A stretch of DNA of 33,579 nt, from the NCBI GenBank assembly GCA_041175245.1, contig JBEDFI010000001.1, positions 1 through 33,579 on the forward strand, in the 5' to 3' direction. Positions 4,997 through 33,579 of this stretch are shown in pieces. A model generated the notes under the pieces. That model saw only the letters and a list, made by a program, of their open reading frames with translations, ran no database searches and was not told the DNA's origin. The number at the start of each line of letters is the position of its first letter. Positions within the stretch are counted from its first letter, which is position 1. Source of the DNA: Bacteroidota bacterium. Its GTDB lineage: Bacteria > Bacteroidota > Bacteroidia > Sphingobacteriales > Sphingobacteriaceae. Both the position numbers and the translations under genes were made by a program.

Positions 4997-6099
4997 CAGG
5001 CCTGCGTTACAGTTCCATTTTGGACCTCAAAAATGGCAACCTGCTCTCCAATTTCATTAAAAACAGAGCGGATGCGTGCTGAGCTGGTATCGGTGATAAA
5101 AATCTGTCCAAAATCGTGGTCAGAGACCTTTTGCATTAATTTCCGGGTACGTTGATCGTCCAGCTTATCGAAAATATCATCTAATAATAGCAAGGGCTCA
5201 AAGCCTTTCGTTTGTTTCAAATAGGTGTATTGAGCCAATTTAAGCGCAATTAAGAAGGATTTTTGCTGGCCTTGTGACCCGAACTTCTTCAGAGGCATCC
5301 CATGAATACTGAAAACCAACTCATCTTTGTGTACACCCATAGTGGTACGCTCCAAGATCCGGTCTTTTTCCAAGTTTTTTTGAAGTAATTCAGCCAGAGA
5401 GGCTTCGTGAAGCGGCGAATCATACACCAGACTTACCTGTTCTGCTTCTTCACTTAAAAAAGAATAGTGCCAATTAAATATTTCCGCAAACTGCTGCATA
5501 AAGTCACGGCGTTTTTGGTAAATAATCGCACCCGACTTAACCAGCTGTTCATCGTACACTTCTAATAACTGTGGATCATATTTAGAGGTGCTGGCAATTT
5601 GCCTTAAAAGCGCATTACGGTTAGTCAAACATTTGTTGTATTGAATGAGCTCATCCAAATAAGTACGGTCAGTCTGACTGATGGCATTATCCATGAACTT
5701 CCGTCGCTCCTCACTCCCCTCCATGATAATACTCACATCGTAGGGAGAAATCATCACGAGCGGAAAGAGTCCGATATGATCGGCGAGCCGTTGATACTCT
5801 TTTTTATTCCGCTTAAATTGTTTTTTTTGATGTTTTTTTAGAGAACATGCAATGGTTTCATCTTTTCCCTGCAGATTAAAAACACCCTGAACCATAAAAT
5901 AATCGGTATGCTGCTTGATCTGCTGCACATCAATGGGGTTGAAATAACTTTTACAGAGAGAGAGATAATGGATGGCGTCTAAAAGATTCGTTTTACCGGC
6001 ACCATTATTTCCTGTAAATGCATTTACGGTAGGAGAAAAGTCTAAACTTGCCTCTTCGTAATTTTTAAAATTAAGGATGGATAAACGCTGAAGCCACAT
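4996..6099 (-). CDS. recF: DNA replication and repair protein RecF
   Basis: The protein is 367 aa. Motifs are Walker A GNNGAGKTNLLDA, the SMC-like signature FGSQGQQKS and Walker B LLLLDDIFDKLD. Confidence 0.95.
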   Translation of the reverse strand: MWLQRLSILNFKNYEEASLDFSPTVNAFTGNNGAGKTNLLDAIHYLSLCKSYFNPIDVQQIKQHTDYFMVQGVFNLQGKDETIACSLKKHQKKQFKRNKKEYQRLADHIGLFPLVMISPYDVSIIMEGSEERRKFMDNAISQTDRTYLDELIQYNKCLTNRNALLRQIASTSKYDPQLLEVYDEQLVKSGAIIYQKRRDFMQQFAEIFNWHYSFLSEEAEQVSLVYDSPLHEASLAELLQKNLEKDRILERTTMGVHKDELVFSIHGMPLKKFGSQGQQKSFLIALKLAQYTYLKQTKGFEPLLLLDDIFDKLDDQRTRKLMQKVSDHDFGQIFITDTSSARIRSVFNEIGEQVAIFEVQNGTVTQA

Positions 6100-15670: not shown

Positions 15671-17296
15671 TTATTTTGATTGAAATGAACGCCGCAAACG
15701 CAGCATCATCACCAGGCCGAAGATCAAGAGTAGTAAAGCCCCCATTAAGCCTGCTTTTGCAATTAAATCAGGATATCGGGTATAAAACGTGAGTTCTTCA
15801 TTTAGATGGATGTCTTGTTTCAGTGCCGTTGCCGTCCACCATGTACTTTGCTGCACCACATCACCCCGCTGATTGATAAATGCAGAAATACCGGTATTGG
15901 CAGAGCGGGCCACCCACCGTCTGTTTTCGATGGCCCTCAGCTTGGCATAGTACAAATGCTGGTCTTTTCCGGAAGTATTACCCCACCAGGCATCATTGGT
16001 GATGATCGCAATAAAGCTGGCGCCTTGTCCAACGCTTTCTGCCACATATTCACCCCAAATAGATTCGTAGCAAATGACCGGTGAAACACCTGTGCCACTC
16101 TGCGCATAAAACACAGAGGGCTTTTCCTGACGACCATATCCACCGGTGGTACCGCCAAAAGCAGAAAAAGCAGGTTTAAGGAAAGCAAGTGCATCAGCGA
16201 AAGGCAATTGCTCTACTCCAGGCACCAATTTAGATTTGTGATAAAACTGCACCCGGGCAGAATTCTCCATCTGAACTGCCGCGTTGAAACTATCATAATA
16301 GAGGCCACTTTGCTCCATTCGGCGGGCAGTAGGTGTTTGGGCATCCTGATAAGTACGGTACGACTCAATACCCGAGAGTACGTTTCCGTTTTTGTACTTA
16401 GTCAGGAATTGCTGCACACTGATGAAATTGCGATTGCTCCGGATTTCCTCTTCGTTTACATATTCTGAAATCGCAGTTTCGGGCCAGATGAAATATTCAG
16501 TATTTGCTTGCCCGAGCGAATCGGATAACCTGATGAGTTGACTAAGTTGTGTGGAAGCCGACAAGCTACCGTACTTGGAATAAGGATCGATATTGGGCTG
16601 CACCACCACCACATTGGCTGGCCGTTCCTCCTCCTGATAATCTTGGTACCGATAGATAGAAAAAGCAGAAGGAATTAGGATTAAACTCAACCAAACATAA
16701 CTTAGGCGACTAATTGTATCGGTGTTAAATTTAAGGCGAAAGATTTCAAACAAGAGAATATTACTCATTAGAACCCAAAGCGTTCCGCCGTAAACACCGG
16801 TGTATTCATACCACTGAACCAATTGATGCGTTTGCGCAAATCCATTGCCCAGGTTCATCCATGGGAAAGCCAAATCCCAGCTCTGGTGCAGGTATTCGTA
16901 GCAGATCCAGAAACAAATGAGTGCCAAATACGACCATAACCGATTTAACACCTGCCGAAAAGCGTAATATATCCAGAAAGCTGTCGCCATTAGGAGTGCT
17001 CCCAAACCAAAGGGGATCAGAGAAATGAGCACCGCCACCGGCGCCGGCATCACGGCGTGGAGGGAATTGAAAACCCAGTAAATAGATGCGGTATTCCAAA
17101 TGGAAAATGTCAGAAAAGAAAGAGCAAAAATTTTACGACCCTTCTTTTTAAGGTCGGCCTCAAACAGGTGATCGATGGCAAACAGTAAGGGCACTAATGC
17201 AACCCACAAAACCGGTCCGGTATAGGGAATAGGCGGCCAGGCCAGCCAAAGTAAAAATGCAGTTAAAAGTGCTAAAGCGTAATGCTTACGAGTCAT
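15671..17296 (-). CDS. lnt: Apolipoprotein N-acyltransferase
   Basis: The protein is 541 aa with a polytopic N-terminal half. The C-terminal CN-hydrolase domain carries Glu (IWPETA), Lys (HKSKLVP) and Cys (ICYES) triad motifs. Confidence 0.85.
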   Translation of the reverse strand: MTRKHYALALLTAFLLWLAWPPIPYTGPVLWVALVPLLFAIDHLFEADLKKKGRKIFALSFLTFSIWNTASIYWVFNSLHAVMPAPVAVLISLIPFGLGALLMATAFWIYYAFRQVLNRLWSYLALICFWICYEYLHQSWDLAFPWMNLGNGFAQTHQLVQWYEYTGVYGGTLWVLMSNILLFEIFRLKFNTDTISRLSYVWLSLILIPSAFSIYRYQDYQEEERPANVVVVQPNIDPYSKYGSLSASTQLSQLIRLSDSLGQANTEYFIWPETAISEYVNEEEIRSNRNFISVQQFLTKYKNGNVLSGIESYRTYQDAQTPTARRMEQSGLYYDSFNAAVQMENSARVQFYHKSKLVPGVEQLPFADALAFLKPAFSAFGGTTGGYGRQEKPSVFYAQSGTGVSPVICYESIWGEYVAESVGQGASFIAIITNDAWWGNTSGKDQHLYYAKLRAIENRRWVARSANTGISAFINQRGDVVQQSTWWTATALKQDIHLNEELTFYTRYPDLIAKAGLMGALLLLIFGLVMMLRLRRSFQSK

Positions 17297-20139: not shown

Positions 20140-20790
20140 CTATTCTTCTACCATTTCACTTTGCGGTTGACTTTCCAAGACCTCCGGTTCTTTGAAGTAG
20201 TGTTTCTGAAAAATCAGGATGAGGATAACCCCGATGCTGATGGCCGTATCGGCCAGGTTAAACACCGGCTGAAAAAATACCAGGGGTTGATTGGCCCAAA
20301 ACGGAAACCAGGATGGATATTGTGTATTTATGATCGGGAAGTATAACATATCCACAACTTTCCCGTGAAATATACCGGCATAACCACCATCGGCTGGGAA
20401 AAGTGTTGCCTTATCAAAATACGTGCTTTCGCTAAAGATTTTGCCGTAAAAGGTAGAATCAATGATATTACCCAATGCCCCTGCAAAAATGAGCGATACA
20501 TTTAAAATCAACCCCCGGTGATATTTATGTTTGATCAGGTAAACCAAGCCGTATCCAATTCCAGAAACTGCTATGATCCGTAGGATACTCAGTGCCAGCT
20601 TACCGGTTTCACCGCCGAACTCAAAACCAAAAGCCATCCCATTGTTTTCGGTAAAATGGATGATGAACCAATCTCCGAGTATGCGGTATTCCTGACCGAT
20701 GCTCATATTCAATTTGATCCAAAACTTGAGTAGCTGATCAGCCAAAAGCACCAGAAAAATAAGAAGTAAGGGTTTGGTATAGCCTTTCAT
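20140..20790 (-). CDS. lspA: Lipoprotein signal peptidase (signal peptidase II)
   Basis: The protein is 216 aa with four TM segments. Motifs are NNGMAFGF and FNLADTAISIG (catalytic Asp). It lies in the conserved ileS-lspA linkage. Confidence 0.85.
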   Translation of the reverse strand: MKGYTKPLLLIFLVLLADQLLKFWIKLNMSIGQEYRILGDWFIIHFTENNGMAFGFEFGGETGKLALSILRIIAVSGIGYGLVYLIKHKYHRGLILNVSLIFAGALGNIIDSTFYGKIFSESTYFDKATLFPADGGYAGIFHGKVVDMLYFPIINTQYPSWFPFWANQPLVFFQPVFNLADTAISIGVILILIFQKHYFKEPEVLESQPQSEMVEE

Positions 20791-27387: not shown

Positions 27388-28113
27388 ATGTTGCAAAAAA
27401 CCCGGGGAATTGTATTCAAAACCACACACTATGCTGAGAGCAGCGTGATCGTACAGGTATTCACGGAAAAGCTGGGTTTGCAATCTTATTTGATCAATGG
27501 GGTGAAAAAACCAAAAGCCAAAATCAGTTTGAACATGCTGCAGCCCTTGCACCTGTTAGATATGGTGGTGTATCATAAATCAAACAGTACTATACAACGG
27601 GTATCAGAGTTGCGACAAAGTCCGGTTTTTCAGCAAATTCCTTATGATATCGTGCGAAGCAGTTTGGCTATCTTTTTGAATGAAGTCATTTATAAAAGTC
27701 TTAAACAACAAGACAAAGACGAGATCTTATTCGATTTTTTGTTCCATGCCATCGAACTGCTCGATCGGATGGAGAAAGGCCTGGCCAATTACCATCTTTA
27801 TTTCTTGATGAGATTGACCCGATTTTTAGGCTTTTTCCCGGATGAACACTCCTTTCGGGAAGAGGCTTATTTCGATCTTAAAAATGCCGAGTTTACTTCT
27901 TTTGTACCGCCGCACACCTTCGTGATAGGACCAAATTTGACTGGCTTGTGGAATCTATTGTTAAAAAGCTCGTTTGAAGAGCTGGATCAGCTGCAGGTAA
28001 GCTCCAATGAGCGAAAGCTCTTGCTTGAGCACCTGCTGGATTATTACCGCTTACACATCGAGAATTTTGGCGAGATCAAATCTCAGGCAGTATTAACCGA
28101 GCTTTTCAACTGA
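27388..28113 (+). CDS. recO: DNA repair protein RecO
   Basis: The protein is 241 aa. It has the N-terminal OB-fold pattern (TRGIVFKTTHYAESSVIVQVFTEKLGLQSYLINGVKK) and a helical C-terminal domain. Size and layout are typical of RecO. Confidence 0.85.
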   Translation: MLQKTRGIVFKTTHYAESSVIVQVFTEKLGLQSYLINGVKKPKAKISLNMLQPLHLLDMVVYHKSNSTIQRVSELRQSPVFQQIPYDIVRSSLAIFLNEVIYKSLKQQDKDEILFDFLFHAIELLDRMEKGLANYHLYFLMRLTRFLGFFPDEHSFREEAYFDLKNAEFTSFVPPHTFVIGPNLTGLWNLLLKSSFEELDQLQVSSNERKLLLEHLLDYYRLHIENFGEIKSQAVLTELFN

Positions 28114-29213
28114 ATTCCATCTGCAGGCCGATACAGTGGCAGCGTAAACCAAAAAGTAGCTCCTTCACCCTCCTTGCTTTCTACGCCGATTTCGCCCCCA
28201 TGGCGCTTCACAATTTCGGAAGAAATATACAAGCCCAAGCCCAAACCCGAAAACTTCTGTGATGATTCCTGAACTCTGAAGAAACGGTCGAAAATATAAT
28301 GAATCTTATCTGCAGGGATCCCAATGCCAAAATCCTGTATGGCGATGATGAGGCATTGCTCATCTTTTTCCAAATTGACCAATACCCGATCGGCATCCGG
28401 CGAATATTTAATGGCATTGGATAAAAAATTGATGATTACTTGCTCAATTCGGTGCCGATCGGCAAAAATTAAGACCTCCTCGGTGCCATTGATCAAAATT
28501 TGGTGGGTATTTGTTTGAGACTTAATTTGATCTGCACAATCGGCGAGTACCTCTTCGAGCTGAAAAACCGAATGGTTGAATTGCATTTTACCTGCATGTA
28601 TTTTGGTAACGTCTAATAAATCCTCCACCAGTGTAATTAGTTTGTTTACTTGCTTATTTGCCTTCTCAATAAACGTATTGATGGCAGAAAAGGTCTCTTG
28701 TTGATGGGCCAAACGTTCTAAAATTTGCAGCGAAGCCTTCATACTCGTAATAGGAGTTTTGAGTTCATGGCTGGCAATGCTCATGAACTCGTCTTTTTTC
28801 TGCATCAAGATTTTAGTTGCCTGCTGAGCCAGCTCCTGCTCGGTAATGTCGGTTAAACTGCCAATGTATCCCGAAAACTGTGGATTGAACAATACATTCC
28901 CCTGGCTAAGCACCCAGCGGTACTGGCCATCGCTTCTTCTTAAACGAAATTTAGATTGGAAGGGAGTACGTTTTTCAAAAGCGGACATAAAAACCTTGAA
29001 TTCCTGATCACGGTCCTCAGGATGTACGGCAGCGCCCCAGCCGAAGCCCAAACTATTTTCAAACGACATGCCCGTAAAATCCACCCAGGTCTTATTTACA
29101 TACGTTGCCGATCCTTCATTGTTCACCTTCCAAATCATGGTGGGTATCAGATCGGCCAGTTCGGTAAAATGATCTTCCAGTATTTTTCGTGGTGTTGGAC
29201 TCAGGTTTTTCAT
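28083..29213 (-). CDS. Soluble PAS-domain sensor histidine kinase
   Basis: The protein is 376 aa with no TM segment. It has a PAS domain (IWKVNNEGSATYVNKTWVDFTG...YRWVLSQG), an H-box (IASHELKTPITS), an N-box (NFLSNAIKYS) and G-boxes (DFGIGIP, GLGLGLYIS). The 3' end overlaps recO by 31 nt. Confidence 0.88.
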   Translation of the reverse strand: MKNLSPTPRKILEDHFTELADLIPTMIWKVNNEGSATYVNKTWVDFTGMSFENSLGFGWGAAVHPEDRDQEFKVFMSAFEKRTPFQSKFRLRRSDGQYRWVLSQGNVLFNPQFSGYIGSLTDITEQELAQQATKILMQKKDEFMSIASHELKTPITSMKASLQILERLAHQQETFSAINTFIEKANKQVNKLITLVEDLLDVTKIHAGKMQFNHSVFQLEEVLADCADQIKSQTNTHQILINGTEEVLIFADRHRIEQVIINFLSNAIKYSPDADRVLVNLEKDEQCLIIAIQDFGIGIPADKIHYIFDRFFRVQESSQKFSGLGLGLYISSEIVKRHGGEIGVESKEGEGATFWFTLPLYRPADGIQLKSSVNTA

Positions 29214-29282
29214 GGTATGATCTAAGATTTAAGTATCGGGGACGAAAAAATCAGGATCTGTTGAGCTTTCAGTACACTGTAC

Positions 29283-29645
29283 TCATAGATGCTTAAAATT
29301 TAGGACAATATCCTCCAACTCTTTGATGTCAAACGGCTTAGACAGGAAATTATTGGCTCCAGCCTCTTTAGCCAGCTTTTTGATGTCGTTATTGGCGGAA
29401 AAGTAAATGATCGGAATTTGATACACTTCGCGGTCTTTCTTGAGCAATTGAGTAGCTACAATCCCTCCACAGTCGGGAATCCAGTTATCCATTAAAATCA
29501 AGTCTGGCTTTAACCTACGAACGGTCTTCAGAATATCGTTGCAATGTGTGCGGGTATGCACCTCCCAGCCTAAAGCGGATAAGATATAATCACAAATGGA
29601 GAGGATATCGGTATCATCGTCGCAAATTAAGATTCGCTTAGACAT
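29283..29645 (-). CDS. Stand-alone response-regulator receiver domain (CheY-like, no output domain)
   Basis: The protein is 120 aa. It has the acidic pocket ILICDDD, the phospho-acceptor LILMDNWIP, FSAN, and the conserved Lys in LSKPF. Confidence 0.88.
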   Translation of the reverse strand: MSKRILICDDDTDILSICDYILSALGWEVHTRTHCNDILKTVRRLKPDLILMDNWIPDCGGIVATQLLKKDREVYQIPIIYFSANNDIKKLAKEAGANNFLSKPFDIKELEDIVLNFKHL

Positions 29646-29751: not shown

Positions 29752-30153
29752 TCAAGGGGAATTTTTCAATCTCTTGTTAATGATTCCCATACCGACATAA
29801 AGTACTGGCGAAATCAGAAACTCTTGAATGGTTACAGTAAAATCTTTGACTTGTTTACTCACCATACCGAAAACCCAATCATATGTCCCAATCAATACCA
29901 ATACTGCCAAGAGAGAAATATGGATAAAATGCCAAATTTGGGACATCCATTTATCGTTTAATTTACCCAGATGCGAAGTTCCAATGAGATACACCAAAAA
30001 AGTCGTTGAAAACTTAATAATATGCCTGATACGACGTGGAATAAATTGTGTTTGATCAGACTCAATAAAAAACAAGTAGAATAGGGAATAAATTATCAAA
30101 ATCAATATTAAACCCACTATCCACCTAGACCGCTCGCTTTGATAAATTTTCAT
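29752..30153 (-). CDS. Exosortase F system-associated membrane protein
   Basis: The protein is 133 aa with about four TM helices. Its start overlaps the XrtF stop (TGATG). Size, topology and position match my memory of the family named 'exosortase F system-associated protein'. This was not verified by alignment. Confidence 0.6.
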   Translation of the reverse strand: MKIYQSERSRWIVGLILILIIYSLFYLFFIESDQTQFIPRRIRHIIKFSTTFLVYLIGTSHLGKLNDKWMSQIWHFIHISLLAVLVLIGTYDWVFGMVSKQVKDFTVTIQEFLISPVLYVGMGIINKRLKNSP

Positions 30154-30755
30154 CAGTCAATTTTAAAACTTAGTTTTCTGGCATAACACATCCATAATAG
30201 GAAGATGGTTCCATAGATGATGATTTTGAAAACATAGTGATGTGCAAATTCAAAATAAGATTGGATATAAATCTCAATGGTTGCAAGGCCTGCACACCTT
30301 ATCAGGTTAGCAAGATGTATAATTATTACGCCAGAAAGAATATACAAAACTTTTCTTTTTAAGGTTGACGGTAACAACAAGATAAACCCAATGTATAAAA
30401 CAAATAATTCCAGTCCATTACAGCCATCGGCAATATGCATTACTTTAAAGTTGTTGAACGTTATTCTACTTACATTAGATTCAATTAATTGGCCTTCGAA
30501 AAACTTTTTACTCACAAAAGGAGAAGAAGTAAAACTAGTTGTTCGGTGAGAAAAATTGAGGATACTAACTGTTTGGCTACCAACTAAATTGGTTAAGGGA
30601 CCATCTAAAAGCCTATTAGGTAAAAATACTATAAGATAAACGGTCTTCCAGATGACGAATAGCAGAAGAGCCCTGTAAAAGAAATCTCTAACAGGGCCTT
30701 TTACATCTTTAAACAAAAATTTAAAGATGTCATTTATTGGTTTTAACCAAATCAT
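30153..30755 (-). CDS. xrtF: Exosortase family protein XrtF
   Basis: The protein is 200 aa and polytopic. Cys112 lies in HIADGCNGLE (codon 30420-30422). The N-x-x-R motif ANLIRC places Arg153 41 residues after the Cys. His172/His173 and Arg193 follow. This arrangement matches the Cys/Arg(/His) active-site layout of exosortases and archaeosortases. The Bacteroidota context and the adjacent partner gene fit XrtF. Confidence 0.7.
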   Translation of the reverse strand: MIWLKPINDIFKFLFKDVKGPVRDFFYRALLLFVIWKTVYLIVFLPNRLLDGPLTNLVGSQTVSILNFSHRTTSFTSSPFVSKKFFEGQLIESNVSRITFNNFKVMHIADGCNGLELFVLYIGFILLLPSTLKRKVLYILSGVIIIHLANLIRCAGLATIEIYIQSYFEFAHHYVFKIIIYGTIFLLWMCYARKLSFKID

Positions 30756-30946
30756 TCACTACCCTGGTCTTTGGATGCTTTGTAAACATCTCTCGCCTTT
30801 TTGGCGCCGTAACCAAGCCCTGCAGCGAGTAATAGACTAATCCCTCCATCTATAGGTACATCATTCTGATCCGGATCAAAGTCAGGCTGAGCATGAACTG
30901 AAAAGAATAGGCCAAGGAAGATGATCAAAAAAATGAATTTCTTCAT
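30752..30946 (-). CDS. Secreted mini-protein with a PEP-CTERM-like C-terminal sorting signal (P-I-D-G-G / TM / KKAR)
   Basis: The 64-aa product is MKKFIFLIIFLGLFFSVHA-QPDFDPDQNDV-PIDGG-ISLLLAAGLGYGA-KKAR-DVYKASKDQGSE, which I re-translated by hand. It starts 13 nt after the T9SS gene stop. Its stop overlaps the XrtF start (ATGA). Confidence 0.6.
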   Translation of the reverse strand: MKKFIFLIIFLGLFFSVHAQPDFDPDQNDVPIDGGISLLLAAGLGYGAKKARDVYKASKDQGSE

Positions 30947-30959
30947 ATCAAAGTAGATT

Positions 30960-33579
30960 TTATTTCTTAATTATTTTATGAGTATATCTACGTTTTCCGG
31001 AAATTAGTTCAACAATATAAGTTCCAGCAGTTAGAGCGCTCACATCAATCGAAAAAGAGTTACCGTCACCCACCTCAATATCCGCAGTTAACAGACGTTG
31101 TCCGTTGAAATCAGATATAAAAAGTTTCGAATTTTCTTGTAATTCAATATCACTGCCCAGAGACAGATTTAATTCATTGGTGACCGGATTTGGATAAACC
31201 ATAAATCCTTTTTGTGTGACTGCTTGTGTGGAGGAAAGTTCTAATACAGGTTTTCTTAACAGTAAGTAGAAGTTGTCGAGGGTTCTTTGACCAGTAACTG
31301 GTGCAATTGATACATCGAATATAGATCCTTTATTTACTCTGTATTCAGTACCTTTAAGTTTATCTACCAAAAAGATTTCATGCTGGGCAGCATAATCTTC
31401 CGCATTAATCCTTAATACATAAGAACGGGCATTCAAATTCCATAACTTTAAATCAACTGAATCGCTCAGCAGATTGCTCAGCGGATTCTTACCTTCAAAT
31501 GCAAAATTCTTAGCGCCTCTTGAAAGTGCAATATTTTCATCTGGATTATTCAATTTATCCGCATCATCCACCCCTAACTCATCAGACCATCCATTAGCGT
31601 AGTATAATGTTGCAGCATCGGCTGCTTTCTTATCTAGATTCTCTTTTAGATAAATTAAAATTGAAATTCTATTCTCACCCACATCAGGCTGCAGATTGTT
31701 TGCAGAATTGGTGGAATTGGAAACAGGTGGGGAATCTACTGAAAAAATTGATTTCCGTCCATTGCTACCGGTGTACTTGTCAGTTTCGTTAAAAGTGATT
31801 GATGGACTTGAACCGGTGGTTTTTACAAAAAAAGCTTGCCCTGGCTGAATGTAGCGATCTAATCTTGAAGTGGTACCATTTTGTTTTTGTCCAGAATTTG
31901 TTCCAGGATTATAAATCCAGGCTTCAAATCCACCTCTTCCATTCGTTCCTGCAATGGTCGGATCCCAAACATAATAGGTATTGCTAACATTTTGTTTGGT
32001 AACCGTATGCCAATCTACATAAGCCCAGTATGGATTTCCGATAAATGACCAGGCATTGGTGGTGGCATTTAAACTAACTGCAGAAAGAACGCTGGTACCC
32101 GAACCTGTGGAATTAAATATAGTTTCACAATAGCATAACTGACCCGTTGTTCTGATCGTGGTTGAATCGGGCACAGGGGTATTCGTGTTCATGTTAACAG
32201 CCCGGCTTCCCCTAATCAAAATTCGATAAGCTTCTCCGAATTTCATGAGATCAGTACTCGCATTGTTTGTACTACTAACCGAAACCCAGGTTTGTGTAGC
32301 ATTATCGAATTTGAACAAACTTGGATTACCGGTCAGTGTGGCATCAAACCCATTTGCTCCAGTTGTGCTACCGGTAATATGAGTTCCATAGCCAGTTGTA
32401 TTATTTTGATAGCTGGCATATACCGTAGAAGTATTATTTTGACCTTCTTGCCAATTGTCACGAATAGTTCCTGTGGTGTTTACACCGGGAGTTAAAAATC
32501 TAAAAGCTCGTTGACTACCTGGAATCAGTCGCTCAACAATCACGTTACCATTAATGGTTGCGGCGTTTGAGCAATTTACAGTACCCAATATCCCCTCATC
32601 ACTGGCTGTACTTTTAAAAGTTAGGTTTCCATTCGTACTAAGTTGCCCACTATTTATCGACAATACCCCAATCATGTTAACCATGGTACCTACGTTATTG
32701 CTGATAGTTACTCCAGAGGTATTTTCAATTTTTAAGCTTTTAAAAGCTCCAGTACCTGAAATGGTCTGGGAATTGGTACCACTCAGTTCAAGTGTGCCCT
32801 CTCCGAGTGATTGACCGTCATTGCTAACATTGCCTTTTACTGACAATACCGTGTTGTTGTTGATAGTAATTTTCGCACCTGACTGAATTACTAAATCCTT
32901 GATGGAAACATCATTCCCTACTTCCGGATCATTAGTTATGCCCGAGGGAATACTGATTGAATAATCTACAGAAGGGCTAAGGTCATTTGGATTCCAGTTT
33001 GAACTACTTCCAAAAGAATTGTTACTGGCACCAGTCCAGACTAAAGGGTCGTTGTTATCCGCAATGGTCCCAGTAGAAAATGTACCGCTACTATTTGAAA
33101 TTTCTTTGGTTGTTGCACTTTCAGTAAATGAATTCGTTTTAATTACAAAATTTTCATTTACCTCCGGTCGAGAATCATCCGTAACAGAAACTCGCAGGAA
33201 TACAGTATTAGTTGTATTCGTTACAGTTATTGAACTAGTTAGATCTGACCAAGTTGAATTATTAAGCGAATATTGAATAGTTGAACCTAAATCACTTCCC
33301 ACAACTGCGGTCCCATCTATTAATGTTGGCGTAAAAGATATAGAATTACCAGTGGCTCTACTTTTTGAGAAGCTTAGTTCAAAGTTAATGTAGTTATTAC
33401 CCGAAGCCTCTATAACCACCGATGGATCTGAAATGCTGACAACTACTGTAGCATCTTGAGTGGTTTTTGCAGATTCCAAGTCAGTTTTTACGCCAGAAGA
33501 ATTAAACCTAAAATTAGACCCGACGCTGAAATTCGATTCGTAGCCAGGAAGAACAAATAAATATCTAGAGGTGCCACTG
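30960..33579 (-). CDS. Large surface protein with a Calx-beta-like domain and a T9SS type A C-terminal sorting domain (5' end outside the window)
   Basis: The C-terminus VYPNPVTNELNLSL...IDVSALTAGTYIVELISGKRRYTHKIIKK is a classic Por/T9SS CTD. The N-terminal visible part fits a Calx-beta pattern (FTPTLIDGTAVVGSDLGS...VFLRVSVTDDSRPEVNENFVI). The 'M' at 33479 in the ORF track is a TTG. I checked the frame from there to position 33579 and found no stop, so the gene is truncated by the window edge. Confidence 0.85.
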   Translation of the reverse strand, partial: SGTSRYLFVLPGYESNFSVGSNFRFNSSGVKTDLESAKTTQDATVVVSISDPSVVIEASGNNYINFELSFSKSRATGNSISFTPTLIDGTAVVGSDLGSTIQYSLNNSTWSDLTSSITVTNTTNTVFLRVSVTDDSRPEVNENFVIKTNSFTESATTKEISNSSGTFSTGTIADNNDPLVWTGASNNSFGSSSNWNPNDLSPSVDYSISIPSGITNDPEVGNDVSIKDLVIQSGAKITINNNTVLSVKGNVSNDGQSLGEGTLELSGTNSQTISGTGAFKSLKIENTSGVTISNNVGTMVNMIGVLSINSGQLSTNGNLTFKSTASDEGILGTVNCSNAATINGNVIVERLIPGSQRAFRFLTPGVNTTGTIRDNWQEGQNNTSTVYASYQNNTTGYGTHITGSTTGANGFDATLTGNPSLFKFDNATQTWVSVSSTNNASTDLMKFGEAYRILIRGSRAVNMNTNTPVPDSTTIRTTGQLCYCETIFNSTGSGTSVLSAVSLNATTNAWSFIGNPYWAYVDWHTVTKQNVSNTYYVWDPTIAGTNGRGGFEAWIYNPGTNSGQKQNGTTSRLDRYIQPGQAFFVKTTGSSPSITFNETDKYTGSNGRKSIFSVDSPPVSNSTNSANNLQPDVGENRISILIYLKENLDKKAADAATLYYANGWSDELGVDDADKLNNPDENIALSRGAKNFAFEGKNPLSNLLSDSVDLKLWNLNARSYVLRINAEDYAAQHEIFLVDKLKGTEYRVNKGSIFDVSIAPVTGQRTLDNFYLLLRKPVLELSSTQAVTQKGFMVYPNPVTNELNLSLGSDIELQENSKLFISDFNGQRLLTADIEVGDGNSFSIDVSALTAGTYIVELISGKRRYTHKIIKK

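Follow-up and report, generated by a model that had tools for sequence, protein, structure and literature searches.

A gene encoding a 64-amino acid (aa) precursor with a PID-CTERM tail lies directly upstream of an exosortase-type gene in a Bacteroidota genome, and its product is probably a dedicated substrate of that enzyme. The gene occupies positions 30752..30946 (stop codon included) on the minus strand of the window, i.e. the whole 33,579-nt stretch of DNA that was analyzed, and was recognized from the list of open reading frames (ORFs) and from a match to the curated model NF046080. Its translation, MKKFIFLIIFLGLFFSVHAQPDFDPDQNDVPIDGGISLLLAAGLGYGAKKARDVYKASKDQGSE, begins with a signal peptide (residues 1–19, MKKFIFLIIFLGLFFSVHA; 30890..30946, minus strand), which was judged by eye from the sequence (n-region, h-region and V-H-A) and from the alignment of homologues. 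Signal peptidase I is predicted to cut before Gln20 (VHA/Q). This site is consistent with the −3/−1 rule, and among 32 aligned homologues the Ala at −1 was at least 90% conserved and the Gln at +1 was found in 24, in agreement with the Q-rule of Bacteroidetes (PMC5837995). The sequence then reads into the exported peptide QPDFDPDQNDV (residues 20–30; 30857..30889, minus strand), with a net charge of −4, and the signature motif P-I-D-G-G (residues 31–35; 30842..30856, minus strand), which was invariant in the 32 homologues. The alignment also delimited a Gly/Ala-rich membrane helix (residues 36–48, ISLLLAAGLGYGA; 30803..30841, minus strand). The protein ends with the basic cluster KKAR and 12 further, charged residues that are predicted to lie in the cytoplasm (residues 49–64; 30755..30802, minus strand). 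The five-part ORF and the PIDGG codons were therefore present where the original prediction had placed them. That prediction had let the tail end in KKAR; the cluster is present, but it is followed by the 12 charged residues DVYKASKDQGSE, an extension that the alignment showed to be usual for the PID-CTERM family.

The sequence and the alignment together showed the three-part layout of motif, hydrophobic helix and basic cluster behind an N-terminal signal peptide. Against NF046080 (PID_CTERM), the mini-protein scored 46.2 bits (E = 2.8e-12; cutoff, 26), residues 30–53, beginning at Val30, being aligned to positions 1–24 of the 25 in the model. This match bore out the proposal that the tail is an exosortase-type sorting signal, and the label “PID-CTERM”, which had been half remembered in the original prediction, proved to be correct. 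The corresponding Pfam family (PID_CTERM, PF28310) was present in all 38 of the word-indexed homologues, a profile search yielded 4,427 clusters at 50% identity, and the ORF was conserved in several Bacteroidota families. Within the helix, Y46 and G47 were invariant among the 32 homologues, and conservation was 90% or higher at S37, L39, L40, A41, A42, G43 and A48; it also reached this level at K49, which was followed by charged tails of variable length. The motif varied by clade (PVDGG, PLDGG and PINNG), and it did so together with the helix, PIDGG or PVDGG being paired with AAGxGYG and PLDGG with GAAAFG; PINNG was also seen. Proteins with PID tails were uniformly small: all 52 of the DNA-anchored matches had 190 aa or fewer, the best 150 of the 4,427 clusters ranged from 53 to 125 aa, and the sampled proteins were usually 60–80 aa long and mostly of low complexity. 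These data support the view that small size goes with PID tails in general and is not peculiar to one locus. A six-frame search of the window revealed no second PID-type tail. Our literature search returned no description of PID-CTERM, and where papers named XrtX, XrtY, “exosortase X” or “exosortase Y”, they dealt with unrelated subjects or meant something else by these words; the family is known from curated models only.

Comparison with two close relatives showed 6–9 synonymous and 0–1 non-synonymous changes in the tail codons (31–53). The dN/dS ratio of the whole mini-gene was 0.23–0.33 with the tail almost invariant, a pattern of codon changes that points to strong purifying selection on the PID tail. 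The codons of the signal peptide and linker changed freely and the exported part evolved fast. Among relatives, the exported region was highly variable: some versions were acidic and others strongly basic, and their lengths lay between 10 and approximately 130 residues. Over a patch of approximately 120 nt, loci L087 and L088 shared only 62–65% identity between flanks that were 90–100% identical, and the divergent patch comprised the signal-peptide and exported-peptide codons and stopped before the tail. At the level of sequence, this pattern shows a local allele swap, and an exchange at the exported peptide suggests that some pressure acts from outside the cell.

The start codon of the exosortase gene (30153..30755, minus strand) overlaps the mini-gene stop codon, the two genes sharing the 4-nt overlap ATGA at 30752–30755 that had been claimed. 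It encodes a 200-aa protein that we classified as XrtX-like from its scores on NF046081, TIGR04128 and TIGR04178. NF046081 (exosortase X) was the best model (125.3 bits; cutoff, 170), followed by TIGR04128 (XrtF; 82.8 bits; cutoff, 90). The score on the superfamily model TIGR04178 (56.5 bits) was well above the cutoff of 23, and that on PF09721 fell marginally short (25.2 against 25.7). Eight other members of the clade, individually scored on NF046081, reached 103–134 bits, and true XrtX genes reached 181–219 bits. Judged by these scores, the enzyme beside the mini-gene belongs to a sister clade of XrtX without a model of its own. The original prediction had taken this neighbor to be XrtF. That identity was rejected on the TIGR04128 score and because the partner described below matched no XrtF-associated family, and any tie to the question of what XrtF processes is consequently by analogy only. 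The two residues singled out in the prediction, Cys112 and Arg153, were indeed invariant in 36 exosortase homologues, as were N113, H172 and H173. The enzyme carries extra residues at approximately 73–91, which were absent from the shortest aligned homologues (P0074–P0076), and AF2 modeled residues 75–108 as a three-stranded sheet. When the mini-protein and the exosortase were modeled as a fusion, the overall pLDDT was 84.4 and that of the enzyme part exceeded 90; the mini-protein formed a helix at residues 35–58 with a pLDDT of 58–76, and residues 30–32 were below 50. The charge distribution and the AF2 secondary structure suggest that both termini of the exosortase are inside (N-in, C-in), which would bring Cys112 to the outer side of the membrane, at the height of the PID motif. 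Searches of the PDB by sequence and by fold returned nothing significant for the enzyme.

The ORF directly 3′ of the exosortase gene (29752..30153, minus strand) encodes a four-helix membrane partner of 133 aa. As predicted, the two genes overlap, by 1 nt: TGATG at 30151–30155 contains the stop codon of the exosortase and the start codon of the partner. The partner had no match in Pfam. In NCBIfam, a single model, that of an unrelated permease, was matched at E ≤ 1, and neither NF046082 nor the XrtF-associated family was matched at this level. Homology to the partner at L083, a canonical XrtX locus, was rejected by a comparison of family profiles (hhalign probability, 0.7%); the L083 partner itself scored 41 bits on NF046082, under the cutoff of 75. 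Residues H61, W69, M70, W74, H75, H78 and E111 were invariant in the partner, and its AF2 model had a pLDDT of 81, for which a fold search of the PDB found no significant analogue. As far as sequence comparison goes, the partner represents a family without an existing model.

Conservation of this arrangement was assessed in 80 loci of related genomes. A small PID-type ORF stood directly 5′ of the exosortase gene in approximately 60 of them, which agrees with the expectation that a similar mini-ORF would precede the enzyme in other Bacteroidota, the enzyme being the homologous XrtX-like one. These ORFs encoded a signal peptide and a P[IVL][DN]xG tail, and in at least 27 loci the gap to the exosortase gene did not exceed 25 nt. 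The partner was directly 3′ of the exosortase gene in 76 of the 80 loci. In a metagenome sample anchored on the tail, the exosortase gene came immediately after the mini-gene in 19 of the 36 loci with at least 600 nt of downstream sequence, approximately half of the PID mini-genes in this sample having no adjoining exosortase. True XrtX genes were also paired with a PID mini-gene (L084, 217.9 bits; L114, 218.7 bits; L136, 181.2 bits), so that co-occurrence with a cognate exosortase was seen by adjacency in the window, in the related loci and at true XrtX genes. Some loci had two or three PID mini-genes. Unbiased clustering of the neighbors in the 80 loci recovered four conserved families, namely the exosortase, the partner, the mini-ORFs and a large upstream protein, and it showed no conserved link to polysaccharide genes in the XrtX-like clade.

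In the window, the large upstream protein is a T9SS type A CTD protein of at least 839 aa (30960..33579, minus strand), which was recognized by its Por_Secre_tail match. Its ORF has no in-frame stop as far as the window end, beyond which its 5′ end lies, and it terminates 13 nt before the mini-gene. The protein scored 40.5 bits on TIGR04183 (cutoff, 23), as expected of type A cargo, and 43.3 bits on PF18962 (cutoff, 27), with the sorting domain at residues 761–839; a sequence search of the PDB gave a weak match confined to this C-terminal region. The family was upstream in 32 of the 80 loci, and a CTD protein was upstream in 22 of 52 tail-anchored metagenome loci. A T9SS protein also preceded the mini-gene at L081, L083, L085, L086 and L149, and pairs of the two genes without an adjacent exosortase were found at L081, L085, L138 and L148. 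The upstream T9SS proteins had approximately 500 C-terminal residues in common. This protein, which had no place in the original prediction, is the sole other conserved neighbor of the cassette.

We favor the reading in which the mini-ORF encodes a dedicated substrate of the adjacent exosortase. The earlier proposal of such a mini-substrate thus keeps the curated tail, the conserved adjacency and the small size, and the enzyme to which it is tied becomes an XrtX-like one. We judge this reading likely because the tail exceeds the curated cutoff, because the genes are tightly ordered (T9SS gene, 13 nt, mini-gene, 4-nt overlap, exosortase, 1-nt overlap, partner) and because the exosortase directly follows the mini-ORF in many loci of both samples, a pairing that recurs at bona fide XrtX genes. 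It is further favored by the variation of the motif by clade, by the constraint on the tail codons (9 synonymous changes and 1 non-synonymous change) beside a free signal peptide and linker, and by the invariance of C112, R153, H172 and H173. Finally, the archaeosortase ArtA cleaves and lipid-anchors tails of a like three-part layout (PMC6098224). By analogy to archaeosortase A and PGF-CTERM, the following sequence of cleavage, acyl-enzyme formation and transfer may be inferred for the mini-protein. The precursor would be exported via Sec and cleaved after VHA by signal peptidase I, and Gln20 would probably cyclize to pyroglutamate. The 45 residues left would reside in the inner membrane, N-terminus out and C-terminus in, anchored by the Gly/Ala-rich helix and by KKAR with its charged tail. 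On the outer side of the membrane, the exosortase would recognize VPIDGG in combination with the helix, and Cys112, aided by Arg153 and His172/His173, would cut at or beside the motif via an acyl-enzyme intermediate. An acidic peptide of 11–12 residues would then pass to an acceptor in the envelope or be released, and the membrane stub would be discarded. Several points count against a substrate: the exported part is so short and variable that a function of the product is hard to name, approximately half of the PID mini-genes do not stand beside an exosortase, the fusion model placed the motif with low confidence (residues 30–32), and the sequence conservation of the helix and the 12 residues past the basic cluster would fit a stable subunit as well.

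It is unlikely, in our judgment, that the mini-protein remains uncleaved as a stable single-pass subunit or regulator of the exosortase–partner complex, perhaps a pseudo-substrate, whose helix packs on the enzyme. The sequence conservation of the PID helix is far above that known of ordinary sorting signals. Since the helix is conserved in sequence and not in hydrophobicity alone (SLLLAAG, GYG, AKK), and since the charged tail runs 12 residues past the basic cluster, these features would also suit a stable subunit, as would the freedom of the extramembrane part to vary, the overlapping coding regions of mini-gene, exosortase and partner, and the moderate confidence of the helix in the AF2 fusion model. 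The invariance of the catalytic Cys, Arg and His residues, however, implies that a substrate must exist, and there is no other conserved candidate nearby; two or three mini-genes at some loci and a large unlinked fraction would be odd for a fixed subunit, and the position of the invariant PIDGG, external to the membrane, is that seen in cleaved sorting signals. Quite unlikely, too, is that the mini-protein acts mainly with the T9SS protein, with the exosortase perhaps joining the peptide to this protein or to its holder in the envelope to give one surface structure. We know of no peptide-ligating chemistry of this sort for exosortases, more than half of the cassettes have no T9SS neighbor, and the adjacency may be mere co-regulation of surface components. 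What speaks for a joint role is that this protein is the only other conserved neighbor in both locus samples, that its pairs with the mini-gene persist without an adjacent exosortase, and that its homologues have their long C-terminal region in common. In addition, the T9SS and xrtF mutants of Flavobacterium johnsoniae have defects in biofilm formation and colonization in common (PMC10936215), although that phenotype concerns XrtF, which is of another clade.

That the exported peptide is an Agr-like signal, freed from its tail by a membrane cysteine protease and sensed by the adjacent kinase and regulator, with allele swaps creating pherotypes, we regard as very unlikely. After the cassette, the window contains a response regulator (29283..29645, minus strand) and a PAS histidine kinase (28083..29213, minus strand), both assigned by Pfam and NCBIfam matches and both syntenic in the close relative L087, and the allele replacement of approximately 120 nt spares the tail in genomes that are otherwise 90–100% identical. 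However, conservation of the two-component genes beside the cassette did not extend to the other loci, and these genes probably represent a lineage-specific regulator that is context only. Moreover, the kinase showed a PAS domain but no predicted sensor in the periplasm, the exported parts differ widely in charge and length, and the curated models gave only exosortase-type families for the enzyme and none of AgrB type. A nonfunctional mini-ORF, whether a chance ORF or an upstream ORF relevant to translational coupling only, has almost no probability left: its extreme shortness would fit, but a chance ORF is contradicted by the E-value of the HMM match, thousands of homologous clusters, amino acid-level selection on the tail and conservation across Bacteroidota families.

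A further proposal, which we consider unlikely, is that the mini-proteins are no ordinary cargo but disposable acyl donors. From them, the exosortase would make short, pyroglutamate-capped, strain-variable peptides that become covalently linked to an envelope acceptor (lipid, polysaccharide or LPS) or to the co-encoded T9SS adhesin and thereby build a variable surface coat, swapped between strains by recombination. If true, exosortases would serve here for peptide tagging, a role other than the sorting of proteins.

The system most like the present one is that of PID-CTERM, XrtX and the XrtX-associated protein (NF046080, NF046081 and NF046082; PF28310), with which it shares the tail, above cutoff, the gene order (mini-gene, exosortase, small membrane protein) and the phylum. 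The canonical XrtX locus L083 likewise has a T9SS protein directly upstream. The differences from the canonical system are the lower score of the enzyme (125 bits against a cutoff of 170), its insertion at approximately 73–91 and a partner unrelated to that of L083; moreover, L083 has linked polysaccharide-export genes, whereas the present system has none. The AgrD/AgrB pair is similar in mechanism only: a short precursor meets a membrane cysteine enzyme, a two-component system is nearby and the middle of the precursor is variable among alleles. In Agr, the charged C-terminal tail of the precursor is removed via an acyl-enzyme step, and chemistry of this type may be inferred by analogy for the mini-precursor. 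There is, however, no homology between the systems, the mini-precursor has a Sec signal peptide, and the nearby two-component genes do not belong to the conserved cassette. The XrtF system of F. johnsoniae (TIGR04128) likewise has a short Bacteroidota exosortase (175–200 aa) followed by a small membrane partner, and many members of the XrtX-like clade have been labeled XrtF by JGI; the enzyme studied here differs in its score below the XrtF cutoff, and its partner in matching no XrtF-associated family. [quoted passage not shown] The PEP-CTERM/XrtA (EpsH) and PGF-CTERM/archaeosortase A systems have the same succession of motif, helix and basic cluster and a polytopic enzyme with conserved Cys and Arg, and for ArtA both cleavage and lipid anchoring have been demonstrated (PMC6098224). 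They differ in serving up to dozens of substrates per genome (1–52 are predicted in ArtA-encoding genomes; PMC6098224), and the archaeosortase and exosortase substrates known so far, the S-layer glycoprotein and ZepA among them (PMC6098224, PMC10957091), are folded proteins of full size, whereas all PID substrates sampled were within 190 aa. Unlike the PEP-CTERM and PGF-CTERM tails, the PID tail has a helix conserved in sequence and extends past the basic cluster.

To our knowledge, there is no exosortase whose product has been defined chemically. A review in 2018 noted that exosortases had had no experimental analysis (PMC6098224), and among the exosortases of Bacteroidota a phenotype is known for XrtF alone (PMC10936215). 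An enzyme encoded beside a 64-residue precursor with an exported part of 11 residues would have a very small natural substrate, one suited to asking where the cleavage site lies, which group is left on the new C-terminus and what role the obligatory membrane partner plays. The recurrence of the T9SS neighbor suggests, in addition, that the two sorting systems of the Bacteroidota are connected. The cassette was also present in cultured genera, with Algibacter lectus DSM 15365 and Mariniflexile gromovii KCTC 12570 among the carriers, and occurred in Flavobacterium ammoniigenes and in Algibacter, Mariniflexile, Winogradskyella, Tamlana and Mucilaginibacter.

The mini-gene of the window is a 64-codon ORF (30752..30946, minus strand) encoding MKKFIFLIIFLGLFFSVHAQPDFDPDQNDVPIDGGISLLLAAGLGYGAKKARDVYKASKDQGSE. 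All five parts that the original prediction had described (signal peptide, acidic stretch, PIDGG, hydrophobic helix and basic cluster) were present in the product, and the PIDGG codons were read at 30842-30856 (minus strand), as claimed. The basic cluster KKAR was also present, but the prediction had omitted the 12 charged residues after it, so that the protein extends beyond the cluster. The stop codon of the mini-gene and the start codon of the exosortase gene (30153..30755, minus strand) share ATGA at 30752-30755, and the predicted overlap of the exosortase gene with its partner gene (29752-30153, minus strand) was seen as a single base (TGATG). The label “PID-CTERM” suggested in the original prediction proved correct: the mini-protein scored 46.2 bits against NCBIfam NF046080, the PID-CTERM protein-sorting domain (curated cutoff, 26; residues 30-53), and Pfam PF28310, named PID_CTERM, was found on 38 of 38 word-indexed homologues. 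At the predicted signal-peptide cleavage site, Ala at position -1 was at least 90% conserved, and 24 of 32 homologues carried Gln at +1.

The 200-aa enzyme is an exosortase, as indicated by a score of 56.5 bits against TIGR04178 (cutoff, 23). Its original assignment to XrtF was ruled out, because it scored 82.8 bits against TIGR04128, under the cutoff of 90, and scored higher against exosortase X (NF046081), its best model (125.3 bits, under the cutoff of 170). The XrtX model was top-scoring for all 36 homologues in the exosortase alignment A1, none of which reached its cutoff. Eight other members of the clade, scored individually, gave 103-134 bits on this model, whereas genuine XrtX genes found in this analysis gave 181-219 bits. 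These scores place the enzyme in a consistent sister clade of XrtX, for which no specific model exists. NCBI names one clade member only “exosortase/archaeosortase family protein”, and several carry the JGI label XrtF.

A one-genome-per-species scan for exosortase relatives yielded 80 loci from Chitinophagaceae, Sphingobacteriaceae, Flavobacteriaceae and Mucilaginibacter. The original prediction had suggested checking whether a similar mini-ORF directly precedes the exosortase in other Bacteroidota, and such an ORF was seen in approximately 60 of these loci. It is small, lies immediately 5′ of the exosortase, and encodes a signal peptide and a variable stretch, then P[IVL][DN]xG, followed by a hydrophobic helix and basic residues. 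Of the loci that lack it, three have less than 400 nt of upstream sequence. The gap to the exosortase was 25 nt or less in at least 27 loci, frequently with the identical 4-nt overlap. The motif differed by clade: Chitinophagia and Sphingobacteriia had PIDGG or PVDGG together with AAGxGYG, Flavobacteriaceae had PLDGG together with GAAAFG, and Mucilaginibacter had PINNG. Conversely, metagenome contigs were searched with a degenerate DNA pattern built only on the tail, which yielded 52 tails. An exosortase lay immediately 3′ of the tail in 19 of the 36 loci holding at least 600 nt downstream, and 12 of the 52 also had the same partner family. PID-CTERM mini-genes directly precede true XrtX genes as well. 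In some loci more than one PID-type mini-gene (two or three in all) lay no further than 6 kb from the exosortase, each with a different exported part (L014:2417-2869 and 5748-5966; L025, L027, L043 and L053).

A profile built from 32 mini-proteins, used in a full HMMER search, gave 4,427 clusters (50% identity, E <= 0.001), 1,052 of them with E <= 1e-10, and every one of the best 150 was 53-125 aa long. This list is biased to full-length matches, and the DNA-anchored sample is the fairer test of size; there, 52 of 52 ORFs were 190 aa or less between stops, in two classes of 63-79 and 104-184 aa. Around the 80 exosortase genes (within 6 kb), all PID-type tails were likewise on small ORFs. The exported parts, of about 10 to about 130 residues, were acidic and Pro/Gly-rich, strongly basic, or His/Cys-rich according to clade. 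Lys/Arg runs were seen in the mini-proteins of L036, L037, L051, L054 and L059. In Flavobacteriaceae, the pattern H-x-H...G-C-G-H-[DN] recurred in His/Cys-rich exported parts, which could bind metal (mini-ORFs immediately upstream of position 6000 in L026, L029, L032, L039, L047, L056, L061 and L065). A soil-metagenome group of 136-166 aa (L091, L097, L102, L108, L112, L122, L128, L130-L132, L135, L137, L141 and L144) shared the exported segment NPLHLQDPIG.P.PD.NR.DL, so the exported part is not always a mere spacer. In this group an exosortase from the clade of the window enzyme came after the tail and, where the contig was long enough, the same partner family came next.

Codons were compared between the window and two close relatives, L087, whose gene order matches that of the window up to recO and the MMPL transporter, and L088. 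Tail codons 31-53 contained 6-9 synonymous and 0-1 non-synonymous changes, whereas the signal peptide and exported stretch varied freely. L087 and L088 were 90-100% identical in the end of the T9SS gene, the exosortase and the partner, but between L087:1996-2190 and L088:250-444 identity fell to 62-65% over about 120 nt, covering only the signal peptide and exported peptide; within this patch L088 was closer to the window allele. Since neutral drift would be unable to yield such a patch against a near-identical background, the pattern points to recombination that replaced the allele only in the exported half of the mini-gene.

A fourth member of the module, missed in the original prediction, is a large T9SS type A C-terminal sorting domain (CTD) protein (30960-33579, the window end; minus strand), whose gene ends 13 nt upstream of the mini-gene. 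The frame is open to the window edge: upstream of the listed TTG start it has no stop codon, and the listed 839 aa are therefore a minimum; homologues have 920-1,900 aa. When all neighbours in the 80 loci were clustered without bias, no more than four gene families proved conserved: the exosortase (in 80 loci), the partner (in 74), the large upstream protein (in 32, with 89% of cases on the same strand) and the mini-ORFs. A CTD protein ended right at the mini-gene in 22 of the 52 tail-anchored loci. In genomes of this kind about 1% of genes encode T9SS cargo, and on that basis an adjacency of 40% would be a large enrichment. The pair also occurred in Bernardetia litoralis (L081), in the canonical XrtX locus L083, and in L085 and L086, and a Flavobacterium ammoniigenes-like contig had all four genes together. 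The last ~500 residues were common to these upstream proteins. Some loci with a T9SS CTD and a tail had no exosortase within several kb downstream.

Cys112, Asn113, Arg153, His172 and His173 of the enzyme were invariant among 36 exosortase homologues. The mini-protein was fused to the exosortase and modeled with AF2, using unpaired homologue rows (mean pLDDT, 84.4; above 90 throughout the enzyme). Numbered as in the enzyme, the model shows a short N-terminal helix, a membrane helix (21-47), a less hydrophobic helix (51-69), a three-stranded sheet (75-108) and three more helices, the first beginning just past Cys112. As to the docking check proposed originally, pLDDT was below 50 at residues 30-32 of the mini-protein and 58-76 in its helix. 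Positively charged residues were grouped at the N-terminus, in loop 128-135 and at the C-terminus. From this distribution and the model we infer that both ends are cytoplasmic and that the sheet, just before the catalytic Cys, is outside the membrane, with Cys112 at the outer face; Cys112 would then be level with the PID motif of an N-out, C-in substrate. Residues ~73-91 are extra, being absent from the shortest homologues in the alignment (P0074-P0076). A search for structural relatives of the exosortase found no resembling solved structure.

The best-supported reading, which we consider probable, is that the mini-protein is a dedicated substrate. After Sec export, signal peptidase I would cut before Gln20, leaving an end that should be pyroglutamate under the Bacteroidetes Q-rule (PMC5837995, PMC10653852). 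The exosortase would capture the membrane-anchored remainder, Cys112 would attack at or beside PID, and the acidic 11-12-residue peptide would be transferred or released. Cleavage and transfer are proposed by analogy to archaeosortase A, the sole relative with experimental data (PMC6098224). Alternatively, the mini-protein might persist uncleaved as a subunit or regulator, which appears unlikely, and a role tied to the T9SS protein appears somewhat more doubtful still. It is highly improbable that the exported peptide is an Agr-like signal, and the chance that the ORF is no gene at all is negligible.

The 133-aa partner matched no family in Pfam or NCBIfam, and its family is labelled “hypothetical protein” in public records. 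The partner was 3′ of the exosortase in 76 of 80 loci. Its family is better conserved than the enzyme: in separate homologue searches, most partner hits were 47-69% identical to the window protein, compared with 36-54% for most exosortase hits. H61, W69, M70, W74, H75, H78 and E111 (within QEFLISP) were invariant. AF2 predicted a four-helix membrane bundle (pLDDT, 81), without significant fold analogues in the PDB. Because invariant polar residues (His, Trp, Glu) are placed inside membrane helices, the model suggests a candidate binding or catalytic site rather than a passive scaffold. Profile comparison with the partner gene of L083 found nothing, that comparator being itself weak on NF046082 (41 bits, under the cutoff of 75).

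The PID-CTERM signal, exosortase X and the XrtX-associated membrane protein are already curated NCBIfam/Pfam models, so the PID-CTERM concept and its exosortase pairing are both known already, and the locus will not surprise sorting-signal curators; a literature search found no papers on any of the three. The present system differs in that its enzyme clade falls outside the XrtX and XrtF cutoffs, its partner belongs to an unrelated, unnamed family, and it lacks attached polysaccharide genes: the canonical XrtX locus L083 is followed by polysaccharide-export genes, but neighbour clustering of the 80 loci showed no conservation of them in this clade. Four points were not stated in any paper found: the restriction of the PID tail to mini-proteins in the samples examined here, strong selection on the tail with an exported part free to vary, the probable local allele replacement of the exported peptide, and the recurrent linkage to a T9SS protein. 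The cassette offers a clean, very small experimental system for the study of exosortase products.

The rest of the window contains housekeeping genes. Lnt (apolipoprotein N-acyltransferase, 15671-17296) and LspA (signal peptidase II, 20140-20790), both on the minus strand, lie in ordinary surroundings among a tRNA synthetase, uvrA, recO and MMPL, with no evident tie to the cassette. Directly downstream of the cassette are a stand-alone receiver-domain response regulator and a PAS histidine kinase (28083-29645, minus strand), which are syntenic only in the closest relative, L087, and not in the other clades; in this lineage they may control the cassette.
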